A stretch of 64,000 bases of DNA, taken from the IMG/VR virus record IMGVR_UViG_3300032038_000012, positions 71,792 to 135,791 of that record; one strand, 5' to 3'. The notes below the pieces were generated by a model, which ran no database searches, was not told where the DNA came from, and saw only the letters and a list, made by a program, of their open reading frames with translations. Positions 8,505-64,000 of the stretch are shown in pieces; position 1 is the first letter of the stretch, and each line of letters begins with the position of its first letter. A program made the translations under genes and the position numbers. Origin of the DNA: a virus (Duplodnaviria > Caudoviricetes).

Positions 8505-9188
8505 ATGGCTAAAAATACAATGGGATTTAGAGATGCTTACACTCAAACATTAGATATAGATATTTATCCTAAAGGTAATGATGGAGCCGATGGTATATCG
8601 ATAATAGATGTTGCAGTTGATAATAGAAGACATTTAATTTGCACTTTATCTAATGCTGAAGTTATTGATGCTGGAGAGGTCCCTGCACCAGAAGGAACTT
8701 TTGATGTTGAAATTATAAATTCATTACCTGCATCTGGTTCAATATCTACAATGTATTGCGTTCCACTTCCAAGTGAGCAACAAACAACAATTAAAAAATA
8801 TGAAGAATATTTTTATATTAGTAATGCTTGGGAAAAAGTAGGAACAGCTACAATAGATTTAAGCGGTTACTACACTAAAACTGAAGCTGATGCTATTACA
8901 GATGCATTAGATGATAAAATCGATCAAGAAATTGAAGATAGAGAAGCAGCTATTGCCGCGCACACTAATAGTGAAACTATTACTACTGATTTATCTGCAA
9001 AAGAATCTACTTATTATTTATTAGGAACAGAAGATGGTATTGGTAAGGGGACTGGAATTTCACAAGCTAAAACTACTGTTGAAGGTAGTGGTGTAAAATA
9101 TGAAAGTGGTAGTGAACAAGAAAATGGAAAATTATATATAGATGAAGAAAGGGTTACAACTGGATTGTACTTCACAATTTCAGAGTAG
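8505..9188 (+). CDS. Virion structural protein
   Basis: KGNDGADGISIIDV..HLICTLSN and WEKVGTATIDLSGYYTKTE motifs typical of tail fibre connectors. Confidence 0.65.
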   Translation: MAKNTMGFRDAYTQTLDIDIYPKGNDGADGISIIDVAVDNRRHLICTLSNAEVIDAGEVPAPEGTFDVEIINSLPASGSISTMYCVPLPSEQQTTIKKYEEYFYISNAWEKVGTATIDLSGYYTKTEADAITDALDDKIDQEIEDREAAIAAHTNSETITTDLSAKESTYYLLGTEDGIGKGTGISQAKTTVEGSGVKYESGSEQENGKLYIDEERVTTGLYFTISE

Positions 9189-57141: not shown

Positions 57142-58413
57142 CTATTGATGGTATTTAATTAAGAATTCGTTAGATACAGCTTTAAAGCTTTCTCTACCAT
57201 CTAGGGTTCTTAATACAACTCCTTCTCTCATTTCTCCATCTAATTGCGATATGCCATCTGCATATGCAACCATTTCATCACAAGTTTCTGGTAAAATAAA
57301 ATGTTCATCTAATATAGGAACGCAAGGAATATTATATGTATTTACTAATATTTCTGTCATTTCTCTTGGGTTTAATCTTTTTGTTGTTCCATCTTTATAT
57401 CCAAATATTAAATTAAATGCTGCAAAATCAACATCTGCTCTTCCATAATCCCTATTTTGAACTTTATTACCATAAGTTTCTCCTTGTATAGTTACAAAAA
57501 CAAATTCTTTATGTGTGTCTAATATATTTCTTAACACTTCTTCGGCATTATATTTTTCAGCCATTTCAGTATAAACATTTGTTTCATAATAACATTTTTT
57601 ATCAGGTTTATCAAAACATACATTTCTTGAACATACATAAAAATCAAATTTCTTTCTTCCTAATCTTTTCATAGTAAATGTAGTTGAAGTTCCATCTATT
57701 TTTTCAGTGACCATCCATTCTTTTTCTGGATCTCCAGGGAATAGAAATGGCATATTTTGAACTCTTTCTTCATCTGTTTTAACTACCCATGCAGGCCAAC
57801 CGCGAGTATCTCTTTTCTTTCCTAAGAAAATAAATAAGAATTTTTTACCCCAAGTGTATTTATATAATGTTCTTAAAAATTTATGTGCTTTAAATAATTT
57901 TAAATGTCTTTGATACATTCTCATATATTTATCAATATTTGCTTTTCTTTTATTATCTTCTATTACTGAATAAATAACACCTAATTCTTCTGTTAGAGGT
58001 ATATTTATATATTCATCGCCTGGTAGTTCATGCAGCTTAGCTACGTTCCAACCTATTTGAATTGCGGAAATACAAGCAGGCATACCTCCATTTTCACAAA
58101 AATCTCCAAGAGCCATAAGTAAACCTTGAGATACAAAGTTTCCTTTTCCTCCAAAAGTATATTTTTGAGTTTTTATTTTATAGTGTTTAGAGGCTAAAAA
58201 CTCTGACCACTGTCTTTCAGGTAGTTTACTATCTATTTCAAAATAAACAGCTATATCACCTGGCTTAAAAGTACCTTTTCTAGTCATTATATGCCATCCA
58301 CCTACTATCGCACATTCACAATTATCTGAACCTTCAATAGGCTTTATGTCATCAATTTTTACAGTATAGGCAAGTTCTCTTTGTTTTGTTTTTGGGTTTA
58401 ACATATTTTTCAC
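57142..58413 (-). CDS. ATP-dependent RNA ligase (Rnl2/DRB0094-like)
   Basis: N-terminal VYFEIDS domain; TEKIDGTS, QGE, REGVV, FKAVSNEFL. Confidence 0.9.
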   Translation of the reverse strand: MKNMLNPKTKQRELAYTVKIDDIKPIEGSDNCECAIVGGWHIMTRKGTFKPGDIAVYFEIDSKLPERQWSEFLASKHYKIKTQKYTFGGKGNFVSQGLLMALGDFCENGGMPACISAIQIGWNVAKLHELPGDEYINIPLTEELGVIYSVIEDNKRKANIDKYMRMYQRHLKLFKAHKFLRTLYKYTWGKKFLFIFLGKKRDTRGWPAWVVKTDEERVQNMPFLFPGDPEKEWMVTEKIDGTSTTFTMKRLGRKKFDFYVCSRNVCFDKPDKKCYYETNVYTEMAEKYNAEEVLRNILDTHKEFVFVTIQGETYGNKVQNRDYGRADVDFAAFNLIFGYKDGTTKRLNPREMTEILVNTYNIPCVPILDEHFILPETCDEMVAYADGISQLDGEMREGVVLRTLDGRESFKAVSNEFLIKYHQ

Positions 58414-59388: not shown

Positions 59389-60069
59389 ATGGAAGCACGA
59401 AAAGAAGATTTAGATGAAATATTAGAAGCATTATCATATGGAACTTTTGATGAAAATGATGAGGCGGATTTTTATTCAATCGTGGTTCAACCCTTTTCAG
59501 AAAAATATAAGAAACCATTTGATTATGCAACAGGTGCTACTAAAGGTGTCTTAATATTTGAACAATTAGGGTTTGTAATCAAAATACCTTTCTGTCGTAA
59601 TTCAGAAGATTGTGAATATAACAGTACATATGGTGAATATGAATGTTGTTATTTTACTGGTGCGGATACTGATAATGGTTGGGATTATTGTGAAGCTGAG
59701 GCAAATAAATATGAAAGAGCTGAAGAAGAGGGCTTAGCACAATGTTTTGCAAAAACTAAAAAAATAGGAGATATTGATGGATACCCAATATATATACAAG
59801 AACTTGCAGATATTTATAAAAGTATTGATTATCAATCTTCACACACCGAAGAAGATAGCCGTCAAGTAAGTTCAATCTGTAATAGTAATAATTTTTATAT
59901 GTTTAATATTGAATGGTTAAGTGATGCATTCCATTATTATGGAGAAAAAATGTTCCATAAATTATTAGAATTTATTAGAACAGTAGGAATTAACGACTTA
60001 CACGATGGTAATATTGGATATATTGGAAATAGACCAGTCTTAGTTGATTATTCATCATTCGATTCATAA
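59389..60069 (+). CDS. Protein kinase-like enzyme
   Basis: GATK, VIKIP, E helix, DLHDGNIG catalytic loop, VLVDY. Confidence 0.8.
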   Translation: MEARKEDLDEILEALSYGTFDENDEADFYSIVVQPFSEKYKKPFDYATGATKGVLIFEQLGFVIKIPFCRNSEDCEYNSTYGEYECCYFTGADTDNGWDYCEAEANKYERAEEEGLAQCFAKTKKIGDIDGYPIYIQELADIYKSIDYQSSHTEEDSRQVSSICNSNNFYMFNIEWLSDAFHYYGEKMFHKLLEFIRTVGINDLHDGNIGYIGNRPVLVDYSSFDS

Positions 60070-60137
60070 TCCGCTATTGATTTTTATAAAAAAATATTAT
60101 ATAATAATAATGTAAAAAGAAAAAGGAAGTGATTATT

Positions 60138-60431
60138 ATGGATTTCAATATTCTACATCCATTTAGCACATTTAGAGGCGATGATGCTTATAATGGAGAA
60201 TTTAATGGAGCAACAGGCTGGATAATGCAAAGTGATGTTGACAGACAAAAATTAACAGATGGTTTCAAACAAGCAATAGACGAAGGATATGACATCAATG
60301 ATGAAGATATTCAAAATATAATATTTAAACAATTAAATTGTAGCCCATCTGATTTAACACCTTTTGATTTAAACAAATTAAAAAAGGACATTGAAAAGTA
60401 TTATAAAGAAGTCCATAAATCATTGTTCTAG
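60138..60431 (+). CDS. Hypothetical protein
   Basis: Promoter TTGATT-17-TATAAT at 60077-60105. Confidence 0.65.
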   Translation: MDFNILHPFSTFRGDDAYNGEFNGATGWIMQSDVDRQKLTDGFKQAIDEGYDINDEDIQNIIFKQLNCSPSDLTPFDLNKLKKDIEKYYKEVHKSLF

Positions 60432-60447
60432 TCCGCACGAGACCCAG

Positions 60448-60476
60448 TTGATTTTTACAAAAAATTTTGATATAAT
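60448..60476 (+). promoter_or_regulatory. SigA-type promoter TTGATT-17-TATAAT
   Basis: Near-consensus with 17-bp spacer. Confidence 0.8.
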
Positions 60477-60508
60477 AAATATAGAAAAAATGAAGGAGGA
60501 AAAATAAT

Positions 60509-60874
60509 ATGGAAAAGAAAACTACAAAAAGAGAATTTTATGAAATGATTAAGGAAATCGTTGCAGAAGATGAAACATTAGTTGCATTCTGTGAAAAAGA
60601 AATCGCAGCAATTGATGCAAAAGCTGAAAAAGCAAAAGAAAGAGCAGCAGCTAAGAGAGCAGAAGGAGATGCTTTAAGAGAAGCAGTTCAAGCTGTATTA
60701 ACAAATGAATTCCAAACTATTGATGAAATCACAGGAAAAGTTGAAGGAGAAGAAGTAACAAAAGCAAAAGTTACTGCTAGATTAACTCAATTAGTTAAAG
60801 CTGAAATCGCTGAAAAAACTGATGTTAAAAATGAAGAAACTGGAAAAACAGTAAAAGCATATAAATTAGTTTAA
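60509..60874 (+). CDS. Coiled-coil plus winged-helix DNA-binding protein
   Basis: QTIDEI..KVTARLTQLVK..K..KAYKL; strong RBS and terminator. Confidence 0.65.
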   Translation: MEKKTTKREFYEMIKEIVAEDETLVAFCEKEIAAIDAKAEKAKERAAAKRAEGDALREAVQAVLTNEFQTIDEITGKVEGEEVTKAKVTARLTQLVKAEIAEKTDVKNEETGKTVKAYKLV

Positions 60875-60931
60875 TAACATTAACAGGGCGGGCTTAAACC
60901 CGCTCTATTTCTAGTTAAGAAAGGTGGAAAT

Positions 60932-61741
60932 ATGAAATATTGTTTAACTTATCGACCAAATAAAGAACAATTAATGAATAAAGCAGATGAGTTATCTATA
61001 AACTTTAACAGATCAGATACCACTTTACCGGAGTTTTTAGAAAAATATAGAAAGAAAAGAATAATAATAAATATAGATATAGAAAATTTTACAGATGAAG
61101 ATATGAAGCTTCTAAAAGCGATATATGAAAAGCAACCTATTTTTACTTTAAAATTTTCTACTTATAATAAAAAGTTCGTGGAAGATACAAAAGAAGCTCA
61201 TATGCCTTATTTCTTAAGTAAATTAGTTAATGATTGGGACACTTTTAATGCTTTAATAAAATTAGGAGTATCTGATATTTATATAGTTGAACATTTAGGT
61301 TTTGAACTAGACCTATGTGCAGAAAAGGCGCACGCCGCAAATATTCAATTAAGAGCCTTTCCTAATATTGCTCAAGCAAGTTGGATTGATACACCAGAAA
61401 TTAAAAAGTTTTTTATTAGACCTGAAGATGTCGTTCAATACGAACCTTATTTAGATGTTTTAGAATTTATCACAACAGACACATCAAAAGAGGGTGTATT
61501 ATATGATATTTATGCTGTTGATAAAAAATGGAATGGGCCTCTAAAAGAAATTATTAGCGACTGTAATATTGATATTAGTAGTCAATATATAGTTCCAAGA
61601 TTTGCGGAAAATCGTATAAGATGCGGAAAGAAATGTTTAAAAGGATCTAATTGCACTATATGTGAGACTATTGAACATTTAGCAAGAACATTAGAAGAAC
61701 AAAAAATAAAAGTAGTAATGAAAAAAGAGGAGGAAGAATAA
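60932..61741 (+). CDS. Peptidase U32-like fold protein (tentative)
   Basis: GVSDIYI, FFIRPED, C-terminal CGKKC..C..C. Confidence 0.5.
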   Translation: MKYCLTYRPNKEQLMNKADELSINFNRSDTTLPEFLEKYRKKRIIINIDIENFTDEDMKLLKAIYEKQPIFTLKFSTYNKKFVEDTKEAHMPYFLSKLVNDWDTFNALIKLGVSDIYIVEHLGFELDLCAEKAHAANIQLRAFPNIAQASWIDTPEIKKFFIRPEDVVQYEPYLDVLEFITTDTSKEGVLYDIYAVDKKWNGPLKEIISDCNIDISSQYIVPRFAENRIRCGKKCLKGSNCTICETIEHLARTLEEQKIKVVMKKEEEE

Positions 61742-62043
61742 TGGCTTTAAAAGGAAGTATAAGTAAAGAAATAGTAGCAAAGAAAATACTTGAAACTTTT
61801 GAAGGAAGTTTTCAATATGAAAAAGAAATTAGAATTCCTATGGAAGAGGATGGAAATCAAATTCAATTAAAATGTGTTTTAACTTGTGCAAAAACAAATG
61901 TAGAACCTAATGGAGAGAACGCGATTCCAGGAGAAGTAACTCCAGTTGCCGCAGGTGTTCCCGCAAGTGAAAAAACATTTGTAGAACCTACGCAAGAAGA
62001 AAAAGATAATGTGCAAAAATTAATGCAAATGTTAAACTTATAA
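61741..62043 (+). CDS. Conserved phage hypothetical protein
   Basis: Coupled ORF; terminator follows. Confidence 0.7.
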   Translation: MALKGSISKEIVAKKILETFEGSFQYEKEIRIPMEEDGNQIQLKCVLTCAKTNVEPNGENAIPGEVTPVAAGVPASEKTFVEPTQEEKDNVQKLMQMLNL

Positions 62044-62139
62044 TTTTAATAAAAGTAGGCGGCATTCCCGCCTATTTTTGATTTGATTTTTTTGAAAAAA
62101 TATTATATAATAATAATGTAAATAAAGGAGGAATTATAT

Positions 62140-62316
62140 ATGGAAAACAAAGATTATTATGATGACGAAATTGAGGTTATTAAACCACCTTATTATAGAG
62201 TAATGTATATTGATGACGAGGGAAGAAAACATCTTGCTACAGTAACACACCTACCTTATTTACAATATTTAAAAGACAGATTTACTGTAGTTGAGTGCAC
62301 TCTTGTTACAGAGTAA
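62140..62316 (+). CDS. Small hypothetical protein (58 aa)
   Basis: AGGAGG RBS and promoter. Confidence 0.65.
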   Translation: MENKDYYDDEIEVIKPPYYRVMYIDDEGRKHLATVTHLPYLQYLKDRFTVVECTLVTE

Positions 62317-62319
62317 AGT

Positions 62320-62348
62320 TTGACTTTCGTAAAAAATAATGATATAAT
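62320..62348 (+). promoter_or_regulatory. SigA-type promoter TTGACT-17-TATAAT for the hsp20-tRNA transcript
   Basis: Near-consensus. Confidence 0.8.
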
Positions 62349-62432
62349 ATAAGTATGAAAAAGGTAAAGAACCTTTTCCATATATATTATGTTTGTGCGT
62401 CAAAGTTGTTTTTTACGAAAGGAGATTTTAGT

Positions 62433-62831
62433 ATGTTTGATTTTGATTTTGATGATATTTTTACACCAATTTTACTAGATTGGGACAAGAAAAATTACAG
62501 ATTTAATAGAGGAGAAAAAGATATGCATCCATATTCAATTTCCTCAGATGAAGAAAAGACAATTATTGTTCACAATGTTTTAGGTATTAACAAGGAAGAT
62601 TTGAAAGTAACAAAAGAGAAGGAAAATGGAACGACTTATATTGCAATAGAAGGTAAAACAAAAGATAGCCTAACAAAAAGAGAATACTCAGTCAGTTCAA
62701 GATTTGCATTAAATGAAGAGGAGTTAGACCTTTCTAACATCAAATCTAGTATGAGAAATGGGTTACTATACATTATTATTCCAGCAAAAAAACCTGAAAA
62801 ACCAACTAAAGATACAATAGAAATTCTATAA
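62433..62831 (+). CDS. Small heat-shock protein (Hsp20/alpha-crystallin)
   Basis: VLGINKEDLKV, IKSSMRNGLLYIIIP, C-terminal IEI motif. Confidence 0.85.
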   Translation: MFDFDFDDIFTPILLDWDKKNYRFNRGEKDMHPYSISSDEEKTIIVHNVLGINKEDLKVTKEKENGTTYIAIEGKTKDSLTKREYSVSSRFALNEEELDLSNIKSSMRNGLLYIIIPAKKPEKPTKDTIEIL

Positions 62832-62881
62832 TAAAATAAAATAAACATATTGTTTTTTATCTTTGATGCACAAGCGTCATT

Positions 62882-62956
62882 GCACCCTTAGCCAAGTTGG
62901 TAAGGCAACGGACTGCAACTCCGTGATCGCTGGTTCAAATCCAGCAGGGTGCTCCA
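62882..62956 (+). tRNA. tRNA-Cys(GCA)
   Basis: GCACCCT/AGGGTGC acceptor, ACGGA-CTGCAAC-TCCGT, GGTTCAAATCC, U73, CCA encoded. Confidence 0.95.
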
Positions 62957-62957
62957 T

Positions 62958-63010
62958 GCCAACATAAAGAGAGCCTTCCCGCGGCGTTGGTGTTTTTACT
63001 AATCTCTTTA
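62958..63010 (+). ncRNA. Minimal HDV-like (theta) self-cleaving ribozyme
   Basis: P1 GCCAAC/GTTGGT with G1-U wobble, P2 TAAAGAGA/TCTCTTTA, P3 GCC/GGC, L3 TTCCCGC, no P4, J4/2 CTAA (catalytic C 62999). Confidence 0.85.
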
Positions 63011-63014
63011 AAAC

Positions 63015-63395
63015 GGGGCGATACTGCAAACAGTCTCTCCGGAGACTATGATTTTAAACTCAAGCTAGGTAGTAGTGAAAAGAGAACCCCTAGTGAGAAC
63101 CAACAATCTTTTCACAATCAGATTTAGTAACATTCTTTTTAACCCTAAAGATACAAACAGCGAAAAAGGTATCTAATCAATTTTGTGACTCTGTATCTTG
63201 AGTTTTAAGGAAGTTTAATCACTGTAAATGGACTGACAAGATAGAAAGGTCTATTTGTTCATTAGAATTATTTAAGATATGTTAGTCTTTGACTTGAACG
63301 GGGAAAACGTTCCTCATTGACGGGCTCCTCTTAGTATTTTTAAGTAGTTCTATTGTTACAAAAAGCATAGGGTAACCGCCTATGATGAGGAAAAT
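63015..63395 (+). ncRNA. Unidentified structured RNA candidate
   Basis: No credible ORF; several nested and crossing helices (see findings). Confidence 0.45.
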
Positions 63396-63575
63396 TTATA
63401 TATTTTATGGAATTAAAAATAAGAAAAGGATGGGGCAAGCGATTATAAAAACATATCAAAGATTTTGATACTACCATAAGATGCTTGTTATACGAAATCT
63501 GATTTTCTTTATTGATTTTAATTAAAAATTTTAATATAATATATATGTAATAAAAAAGAAAGGGAGTATTCGAAT

Positions 63576-63806
63576 ATGGCAAAAAGAAAAGGTAAATCAG
63601 GTAGCGGAGAAGGATATTATATTATTACTCAAGCTAACCTAGATAAAAAAGGAAAAACAAATAAGAAATTAAAAAGAAATCCTATGGCATCTAAATATCT
63701 TACTGCCAGAGGCAAAGAAATTATAGAGGCGGCTGCAGCTTTTGCTAAAGAACATCCAGCAGGAAGTGGTCGTAGAAACAAGAAAGATGAAAGCAAAGCC
63801 GCTTAA
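63576..63806 (+). CDS. Small highly basic protein
   Basis: Promoter 63512-63540, RBS, Lys/Arg-rich. Confidence 0.7.
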   Translation: MAKRKGKSGSGEGYYIITQANLDKKGKTNKKLKRNPMASKYLTARGKEIIEAAAAFAKEHPAGSGRRNKKDESKAA

Positions 63807-63815
63807 TCTTTTCAT

Positions 63816-63892
63816 GCGGGTGTAACTCAGTTGGTTAGAGTGCACGTCTGATACGCGTGATGTCGGAGGTTCGAATCCTCCCACCCGCACCA
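63816..63892 (+). tRNA. tRNA-Ile(GAT)
   Basis: GCGGGTG/CACCCGC, CACGT-CTGATAC-GCGTG, GGTTCGAATCC, CCA. Confidence 0.95.
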
Positions 63893-63895
63893 TAT

Positions 63896-63984
63896 GCAGA
63901 AGTAACTCAATTGGAAGAGTGTGGGCGTACGCAATCTTAACAACCAGGACACGTGAGTTGTTGGTTCGAATCCAACCTTCTGCA
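63896..63984 (+). tRNA. tRNA-like element with non-canonical anticodon region
   Basis: Perfect acceptor (GCAGAAG/CTTCTGC), D and T arms; the 39-nt middle has no canonical anticodon stem. Confidence 0.6.
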
Positions 63985-64000
63985 AAACCTGGTCGGGTAG

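Follow-up and report, generated by a model that had tools for sequence, protein, structure and literature searches.

In this work we describe a long-range RNA helix that encloses the hsp20 gene of a rumen phage (Duplodnaviria; Caudoviricetes; IMG/VR virus record IMGVR_UViG_3300032038_000012) by pairing a segment of its 5' untranslated region (UTR) with a segment of its 3' UTR, immediately upstream of a transfer RNA (tRNA) gene. The stretch of DNA analyzed, hereafter the window, comprises 64,000 nt (positions 71,792 to 135,791 of the record) and is the 64-kb end portion of a complete virus record of 135.8 kb, which is closed by a 127-bp end repeat; coordinates refer to the window unless stated otherwise. 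The two arms change in concert among related phages and lie next to promoters, tRNAs and ribozyme-like elements. We favor, at roughly even confidence, a reading in which the helix is an end-to-end clamp that defines and protects the hsp20 messenger RNA (mRNA), in the manner of the hbs message of Bacillus subtilis.

The 5' arm (ATGTTTGTGCGTCAAAG, 62389-62405, + strand) and the 3' arm (CTTTGATGCACAAGCGT, 62861-62877, + strand) pair in antiparallel orientation at 17 of 17 positions, forming 14 Watson-Crick and three G-U pairs when the + strand is read, while the same three positions are A-C mismatches on the - strand. The arms are located at about -44 to -28 from the AUG and at +30 to +46 past the stop codon, and the 3' arm ends 4 nt before tRNA-Cys(GCA), which starts at 62882. 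The original prediction, made from the sequence of this stretch, had claimed the complete pairing, the three G-U pairs on the + strand and the 4-nt distance to tRNA-Cys, and our reading agrees with it on all of these. The assignment of both arms is based on sequence, folding, comparison and covariation. In fact, the helix is present in both the minimum free energy and the centroid folds of 62350-62960, and its predicted probability is 0.94-0.99 for the full message between 30 and 55 C and 0.87-0.99 across full-length messages. Among the 197 open reading frames (ORFs) of this genome that carry a ribosome-binding site, hsp20 has the longest helix between its 5' and 3' flanks, the next-longest ones being low-complexity purine/pyrimidine matches, and no other ORF of this set has a comparable enclosing helix. 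The idea that such helices are a general feature of ORFs in tRNA arrays was therefore rejected.

The identity of the gene is supported by Pfam (PF00011, residues 37-131, E 2e-9, 37.8 bits against a gathering cut-off of 20.8). The ORF (62433-62831, + strand) encodes 132 amino acids plus stop, and its true start is 62433, behind the Shine-Dalgarno sequence AAAGGAGA, the longer frame that opens at 62355 not being the real one. A DNA search of phage sequences with 62050-63000 gave no match, tblastn of the Hsp20 protein against phage sequences found nothing even at E 1, and a single-protein scan of viral contigs with Hsp20 was also negative, while alignment-based scans did work. We found 163 homologs of the protein, many of them on phage contigs of 120-140 kb; the closest on record (P0002-P0005) show 73-95% identity, and four loci from the metagenome scan (L034-L037; related loci are designated by L numbers) show 99-100%. 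The alignment-guided scans yielded 26 viral, 64 metagenomic and 3 genome-bin loci, from which duplicates and incomplete loci were removed to give a comparison set of 58 distinct loci with hsp20 in a tRNA-array setting. These relatives come from rumen and gut metagenomes, and three of them had been binned with uncultured Bacilli or Erysipelotrichaceae, which gives a hint at the host.

An enclosing helix is present in the 58 distinct loci, with lengths of 10-21 bp (median 15) that cluster tightly at 13-18 bp and a duplex free energy of -17 kcal/mol (median; range -9 to -23); a few helices carry one U-U mismatch or bulge. The arms are found at about -40 from the AUG and at +7 to +40 past the stop codon, and 23 different arm-sequence types occupy this same position. 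The median pairing length is 15 bp for cognate arms and 9 bp for non-cognate flank pairs, and pairings of at least 15 bp were found in only 19 of 2762 non-cognate pairs (0.7%) and 7 of 1120 shuffled flanks (0.6%). The original prediction had named covariation among related phages as a check, and it was found: on a 32-sequence MAFFT alignment (A2) compared with 500 shuffles, the covariation score was 0.518 versus 0.243, a value reached by 0 of 500 shuffles, 78.9% of the cells were paired (63.5 +/- 1.2 in shuffles) and 118 cells were changed on both sides (48 in shuffles). Double-sided changes affected 16 of 19 pairs, and registers slid by 1-3 columns scored 0.13-0.23. Since a few rows are out of register by one column, these values are too low. 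Furthermore, in the nearest variant, L035, both arm substitutions keep the pairing (C-G to U-G and U-G to U-A). Judging by this comparison, the helix is under selection.

The same comparison bears on the nature of the structure, which the original prediction had taken to be an RNA helix and not a DNA repeat. Internal non-Watson-Crick pairs comprise 6 G-U, plus 3 in the window lineage, versus 1 A-C; a stricter count gives 5 G-U versus 2 A-C, both being small numbers. The promoter, hsp20 and the tRNAs are all on the + strand, the orientation of hsp20 relative to the tRNAs is uniform in about 90 loci, and no common motif for a recombinase was found among the arm sequences. Because of the G-U excess, the shared + strand, the uniform orientation and this lack of a recombinase motif, the structure, as read from the aligned loci, is an RNA helix of the + strand and not a DNA repeat, in line with the earlier claim.

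The helix is absent from hsp20 homologs outside tRNA arrays (L029-L032 and L085). Likewise, the hsp20 genes of the cultured cyanomyoviruses S-PM2 (L105), Syn9 (L106) and P-SSM2 (L107) have no ungapped 5'/3' helix of at least 10 bp, and that of S-PM2 ends in an ordinary terminator. These three viruses show that the clamp is not universal to phage hsp20. The 5' UTRs of L105-L107 share a motif of their own, AACTCGCTTA(T)AAAGGAG. We also noticed a locus, L054 (332-789 plus flanks), in which the 5' UTR is of the L013 type, the 3' UTR and the downstream tRNA are of the L023 type, and the enclosing helix is lost; this locus is either a natural recombinant or a chimeric assembly.

Two types of upstream layout were found. 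In the promoter type, TTGACT-17-TGnTATAAT is followed by the 5' arm, mostly 5-12 nt past the -10 box, a distance which suggests that the arm forms the first nucleotides of the transcript. The window belongs to this type, with a near-consensus sigma-70-type promoter (62320-62348, + strand; TTGACT, 17-nt spacer, TATAAT, extended -10 TG; 11/12 matches) from which transcription is predicted to start at about 62354-62356; related loci share this promoter, and their arm or a small hairpin starts mostly 5-12 nt past the -10 box. Exceptions are the window lineage, the L008 type and L040, in which the arm is preceded by a small, unrelated hairpin. The 5'-terminal hairpin of the window (62354-62382, + strand; 5 + 7 bp by folding) exists as had been predicted, with one A-C mismatch on the + strand, and is an insert specific to this lineage that separates the transcription start from the 5' arm; unrelated hairpins occupy the same spot in L008, L040, L017/L061 and L026, while most lineages lack one and the arm itself opens the 5' end of the transcript. 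In the embedded type the 5' arm begins 1-10 nt past the 3' end of an upstream tRNA (Gln, Lys or Trp). Between the 5' arm and the AUG (62406-62432, + strand) the window has a U-rich spacer, TTGTTTTTTA, the Shine-Dalgarno sequence at about 62417-62425 and a short spacer to the start codon, and an AAGGAGG-type Shine-Dalgarno with an (a/t)tagtATG context is kept in the relatives.

On the downstream side, 37 of 55 loci have a tRNA (Cys, Val, Arg or Pro) at a distance of 2-9 nt from the end of the 3' arm. Four independent lineages without tRNA-Cys (the L008 type, L048, L018 and L101) have instead a theta-like ribozyme that starts 1-4 nt past the 3' arm. The connection with tRNA-Cys in particular, implied by the original prediction, is thus not general, the downstream neighbor being also tRNA-Val, -Arg or -Pro, a theta ribozyme, a GC-richer element or an ORF. 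In most lineages the arms are within 1-12 nt of predicted RNA ends. Moreover, the slot occupied by hsp20 differs among phages (promoter-Cys, Gln-Val, Lys-Arg, Trp-Thr), which suggests that the gene and its arms behave as a portable unit. RNase P and ribozymes of the hepatitis delta virus (HDV) family cut exactly at their own 5' edge, so the message would end a few nucleotides beyond the helix. In the window, tRNA-Cys(GCA) (62882-62956, + strand, 68.7 bits, CCA encoded) follows the 3' arm, and a cut by RNase P at 62881/62882, as expected from its established action, would leave a 4-nt 3' tail past the helix. No terminator was found between hsp20 and tRNA-Cys, and no antisense promoter stands out at the hsp20 locus.

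Immediately after tRNA-Cys, the window carries a putative theta (minimal HDV-like) ribozyme at 62958-63010 (+ strand), the element that stands right behind the 3' arm in the four lineages above. It was recognized by eye from its architecture, compared with the published seed drz-Mtgn-1 (PMC10879173), and it has the nested double pseudoknot of P1 (GCCAAC/GTTGGT), P2 (AAAGAGA/TCTCTTT) and P3 (GCC/GGC), a C-rich L3 (TTCCCGC) and a CUAA J4/2 (CTAA). Its predicted cleavage site is at its 5' end, adjoining the tRNA 3' end, its sequence is conserved in more than 20 relatives, and self-cleavage is predicted from these elements. Rfam gave no match for 62958-63010, and in a search of 60000-64000 only tRNAs matched.

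All these data can be accommodated if the + strand helix closes the hsp20 message into a loop by pairing both of its ends. Transcription would start at the strong promoter, or elsewhere would read in from the upstream tRNA, and would run without a terminator into tRNA-Cys, so that the message would be the leader of a tRNA or ribozyme precursor. RNase P would then cut at the 5' end of the tRNA, or the theta ribozyme at its own 5' end where the tRNA is missing, and this would free a message with only 1-9 unpaired nt beyond the helix and with its 5' end in the helix or in the adjoining hairpin. Paired ends of this kind would be expected to resist both 5'-end-dependent decay, including the access of RNase J1 and RNase Y, and 3' exonucleases, and the helix would take the job of a terminator hairpin at a place where a terminator would block the synthesis of the downstream tRNAs. 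The ribosome footprints at the start and stop codons would end just short of the arms, so translation would not need to open the helix. That the hsp20 message is looped out of a longer transcript reading on into tRNA-Cys, as had been proposed originally, fits with the missing terminator and with the layout shared by the relatives. The stabilization of the mRNA proposed with it is retained as the favored explanation, and we infer both the cleavage sites and the stabilizing effect from the placement of the helix.

The hsp20 region is present in rumen RNA libraries, for which the evidence consists of Logan contigs only; contigs cannot define RNA ends. In four studies hsp20 is covered from 62369, 62373 or 62386 to 62816-62867, as a piece separate from a second RNA (62964/62968/62969 to 63474/63475), and tRNA-Cys is not covered by the contigs. 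The contigs end about 15 nt short of both predicted ends, and their extents agree with ends near 62354 and 62881, which can be taken as a weak hint. The second RNA appears as a discrete species of about 510 nt headed by the theta ribozyme (62958-63475). Contigs X15 and X19, from two studies, span 62964/62968 to 63474/63475, and X17, from a third one, begins at 62969, where it abuts an Illumina adapter. Beyond the ribozyme, the remainder of this RNA, to 63475, has no Rfam match and is kept only in close relatives, plus a patch at about 63156-63220.

Several observations, however, do not sit well with a clamp whose purpose is simply to protect message ends. Other ORFs of the tRNA region, e.g. 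63576-63806 just before tRNA-Ile, have no helix, which indicates that end protection in tRNA arrays is not the whole reason and that something specific to hsp20, the only gene of the region treated in this way, is involved. A local 3' hairpin would protect the 3' end equally well, so the long-range design is left unexplained. Contig X15 reaches upstream through the promoter. In L021 and L080 the 3' arm is followed by another ORF, and in five other types by 100-150 nt of GC-richer sequence, and in these cases the 3' end is not obviously at the helix. Furthermore, partial conservation of the inner 7-8 bp of the helices (..AUAUUAAGA/UCUUAAUAU..) gives a hint that a protein or a nuclease may recognize them. 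The GC-richer elements between the 3' arm and the next tRNA (L065 1577-1680, L066, L083, L084 and L026) may represent additional ribozymes or other small structured RNAs; the one of L065 has AAGTCCAATTA/TAATTGGACTT as its closing sequences, and Rfam gave no match directly after the 3' arm in ten relatives.

The closest parallel to the end-to-end clamp is the hbs mRNA of B. subtilis, in which a 14-bp A/U-rich interaction that joins the 5' UTR to the 3' UTR (-19 kcal/mol) limits cleavage by RNase Y, is regained when a compensatory mutation is made and does not respond to the deletion of RNase III (PMC5737220; Braun, Durand and Condon 2017). As in hbs, the hsp20 helix (median 15 bp, -17 kcal/mol) is made by complementary UTR segments outside a short ORF with a strong Shine-Dalgarno in a Bacillota setting, and it joins a 5' UTR segment to a 3' UTR segment that precedes the 3'-end element; in hbs the former comes after 5' hairpins, and the window also has a 5' hairpin. 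The compensatory changes of hsp20 are those of natural covariation only, over 23 arm types, whereas the evidence for hbs comes from mutagenesis, and the 3'-end element is a tRNA (RNase P) or a theta ribozyme instead of a terminator. A second likeness is with the hok mRNA (hok/Sok of plasmid R1), in which the tac/fbi end pairing stabilizes the full-length form (PMC9841398). This is also a short message whose 5' and 3' ends pair into a closed stable form, as predicted for hsp20, and sequestration of the start site may occur as well in that form. However, the product of hok is a toxin, and its message becomes active upon 3' trimming and is under the control of an antisense RNA, while hsp20 has no evident antisense or trimming switch, start-site sequestration is weakly supported, and the gene encodes an HSP20 and not a type I toxin.

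Formation of message ends by cleavage at adjacent tRNAs, which for hsp20 we infer from the layout, also recalls the tRNA punctuation of mitochondrial transcripts reportedly described by Ojala, Montoya and Attardi in 1981, although the present case concerns a bacterial phage, adds an end-to-end helix and affects one ORF of the array only. Theta ribozymes have been described in recoded gut phages, and those not associated with tRNAs were left without a function (PMC10879173). This phage has the reported associates of these ribozymes (a tRNA array, a suppressor-type tRNA(UCA) and an RNA ligase), but some of the theta elements found here lie 1-4 nt after the closing helix of a message, which suggests that theta forms the 3' end of an mRNA. 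Our literature searches found no published description of this hsp20 enclosing structure.

A different explanation, which the original prediction had brought up and which is unlikely in our opinion but a real contender, is that the helix is an RNase III processing stem, in which the host enzyme would cut both strands, excise the hsp20 message and leave a short paired stub. Its topology is that of the precursor stems of 16S and 23S ribosomal RNA (rRNA), where a long-range helix built from the sequences that flank the product has tRNAs beside it in the transcript, and the tight clustering of arm lengths at 13-18 bp and the semi-conserved inner pairs, which could be a recognition box, would suit a nuclease. 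L021 and L080 have no other processing site after the helix, and the contigs that stop at 62864 and 62867, within the 3' arm, can be added as a weak point given that contigs do not define ends. In contrast to the rRNA stems, the product here is a translated message, and RNase III is not needed in most lineages, where a cut by RNase P or a ribozyme would already free the 3' end and where the 5' arm starts at the predicted 5' end of the transcript, which is not required for excision. The usual RNase III substrates have roughly two helical turns, and the helices are below this size (about 20 bp or more), the median being 15 bp, the window having 17 bp and a single type reaching 21; minimal substrates can be shorter, and the length thus lowers the claim without excluding it. 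Contigs of two studies run unbroken from 62369/62373 through the 5' arm into the ORF, no RNase III gene was found in the phage, and the comparable 14-bp helix of hbs is unaffected in a B. subtilis rnc deletion (PMC5737220).

The region just inside the 3' arm brings in a second alternative. A conserved 3' UTR motif (AAACATATTGTTTTTTA, 62843-62859, + strand) lies directly inside this arm and is kept across the promoter-type lineages even though the neighboring helix arm changes completely. Its TTGTTTTTTA recurs directly after the 5' arm (62406-62415), which puts two U runs opposite each other where the helix ends on its inner side. We considered an ENE-like U-A-U triple helix built from these U runs and the 3' UTR A run, and left it as speculation. 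According to folding predictions, the motif may pair with the region of the start codon and the Shine-Dalgarno or form a local A-run/U-run hairpin. In addition, its first seven bases, AAACATA (62843-62849), are complementary to TATGTTT (62388-62394) of the 5' arm region; the original prediction had listed AAACATA as an alternative partner. Translational control would follow if the clamp brought this element (AAACAUAUUGUUUUUUA in the message) onto the AUG and the Shine-Dalgarno and kept the message closed, in the manner of hok tac/fbi, until heat, a protein (possibly Hsp20 itself) or processing opened it. This we consider quite unlikely, despite the persistence of the motif while the adjacent arms turn over. 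The U run and AAACAUAUU can indeed pair with these regions. In many promoter-type lineages the folds of the mini-messages place AGUAUGUUU opposite AAACAUAUU and AAGGAGG opposite the U run. Both partners have changed in concert in L017 (AUAUGUUUAAU opposite AUUAAAUAUAU) and in L026, and the AUG is mostly paired in full-length folds, with a predicted unpaired probability of 0.02-0.3. However, the pairing of the start region is only 1-3 standard deviations better than with shuffled 3' UTRs, the hsp20 start region ranks anywhere from 1st to 95th among the 197 start regions of the genome where the 3' UTR is long enough, and the motif has its local hairpin as another option. Four tRNA-embedded loci with 3' UTRs of 6-11 nt (L020, L021, L069 and L084) have the helix without the element.

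Small heat-shock genes are, as is well established, classic targets of RNA thermometers, and the original prediction had suggested a thermosensor. This role did not hold for the helix, which is predicted to remain formed up to 55 C, and the helix as a thermometer of the ROSE or fourU type was rejected on the predicted probability given above. Predictions from 30 to 55 C show little opening and no melting of the main helix, and the temperature of the rumen is nearly constant.

It is also conceivable, but improbable, that the helix is a folding insulator that makes a separate domain of the 500-nt AU-rich message, prevents its mispairing with the tRNAs or the ribozyme and keeps their processing efficient. 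The restriction of the helix to hsp20 genes placed among tRNAs or ribozymes, with its absence in L029-L032 and L085, and the location of the arms within 1-10 nt of structured neighbors would agree with this role. Nevertheless, the other ORFs between tRNAs of the same genome do without a helix, and promoter-type lineages have no structured element upstream from which to be insulated.

Circularization of the message, in which the helix would hold the processed ends for sealing by the phage RNA ligase, had been part of the original prediction and has become highly improbable. The ligase gene exists (PF09414, 84.9 bits; domain at 57175-57723, - strand, within a 426-amino-acid open frame), RNA ligases are enriched in phages with theta ribozymes (PMC10879173), RNase P leaves a 3'-OH, and the geometry, a stem that ends in short single strands, is like that of a hairpin loop that has been broken. 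On the other hand, no joint was reported in the contigs of four RNA runs, although contigs could not show a rare junction. Moreover, promoter-type 5' ends carry a triphosphate, the 5' end in the window is 35 nt and one hairpin away from the helix, and ribozyme-cut ends have a 2',3'-cyclic phosphate that this class of ligase does not join directly. A gene for a CCA-adding enzyme, like one for RNase III, was not found in the phage.

Finally, a DNA-level inverted repeat, such as an inversion switch or the ends of a mobile cassette, is scarcely credible, since the portability of hsp20 and its arms among slots is set against 23 unrelated arm sequences with no conserved recombinase site, a window helix that is only 14/17 as DNA with its mismatches all G-U on the sense strand, the predominance of G-U over A-C, the same orientation to the tRNAs in about 90 loci and the lack of reported joints in the contigs.

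Regarding the genomic setting, the tRNA region spans the ends of the record and contains 24 tRNA genes, one tRNA-like call of undetermined identity and a tmRNA-like gene, hsp20 and tRNA-Cys being its first genes. The array continues at the start of the record (G000, contig 1, 1-11200) with 22 more tRNAs and the tRNA-like call. Among the genes located there are a tRNA with anticodon UCA (called SeC; 8971-9066) and the tmRNA-like gene (987-1411). Rfam also identified a tmRNA in two relatives (L008 4771-5210, 77 bits; L018 4368-4807). In the window, an 89-nt tRNA-like gene directly after tRNA-Ile (63896-63984; Rfam tRNA, 45.6 bits; no ARAGORN call) may contain an insert, an extended variable arm or an unusual anticodon loop. 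The hsp20 promoter and its first transcribed bases (62319-62371) recur at six other places of the genome, mostly on the - strand (for example at G000 128858-128905 and 117102-117145, both -), and these copies look like members of an early-promoter family in which the start of the leader is shared.

To the best of our knowledge, pairing between the ends of a bacterial mRNA has been shown for a few genes only (hbs, icaR, hilD and hok), each in one species. The matched mutations in 23 versions of the arms represent unusually strong comparative evidence that such pairing is selected, and what is new here is the placement in a tRNA array, the RNase P and theta sites that adjoin the helix, and a possible function for theta ribozymes without a tRNA neighbor. 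With this arrangement a protein could be made from a gene within a tRNA array with no need for a terminator, RNase P or a self-cleaving theta ribozyme being the likely means of making the 3' end of the mRNA, and it may provide a ready-made natural module for building stable messages in Bacillota. Going further than the end-to-end clamp, we put forward only as a tentative and rather doubtful idea that hsp20 with its arms is a self-contained, portable message module that fits between any two self-processed or RNase P-processed RNAs (tRNAs, theta ribozymes), in which the cuts of the neighbors would define the ends and the clamp would seal an exceptionally long-lived or ligase-circularized closed-loop mRNA. 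If this were true, it would be the phage counterpart of mitochondrial tRNA punctuation combined with eukaryote-like closed-loop messages, and the orphan non-tRNA theta ribozymes would gain a role in the formation of mRNA 3' ends.

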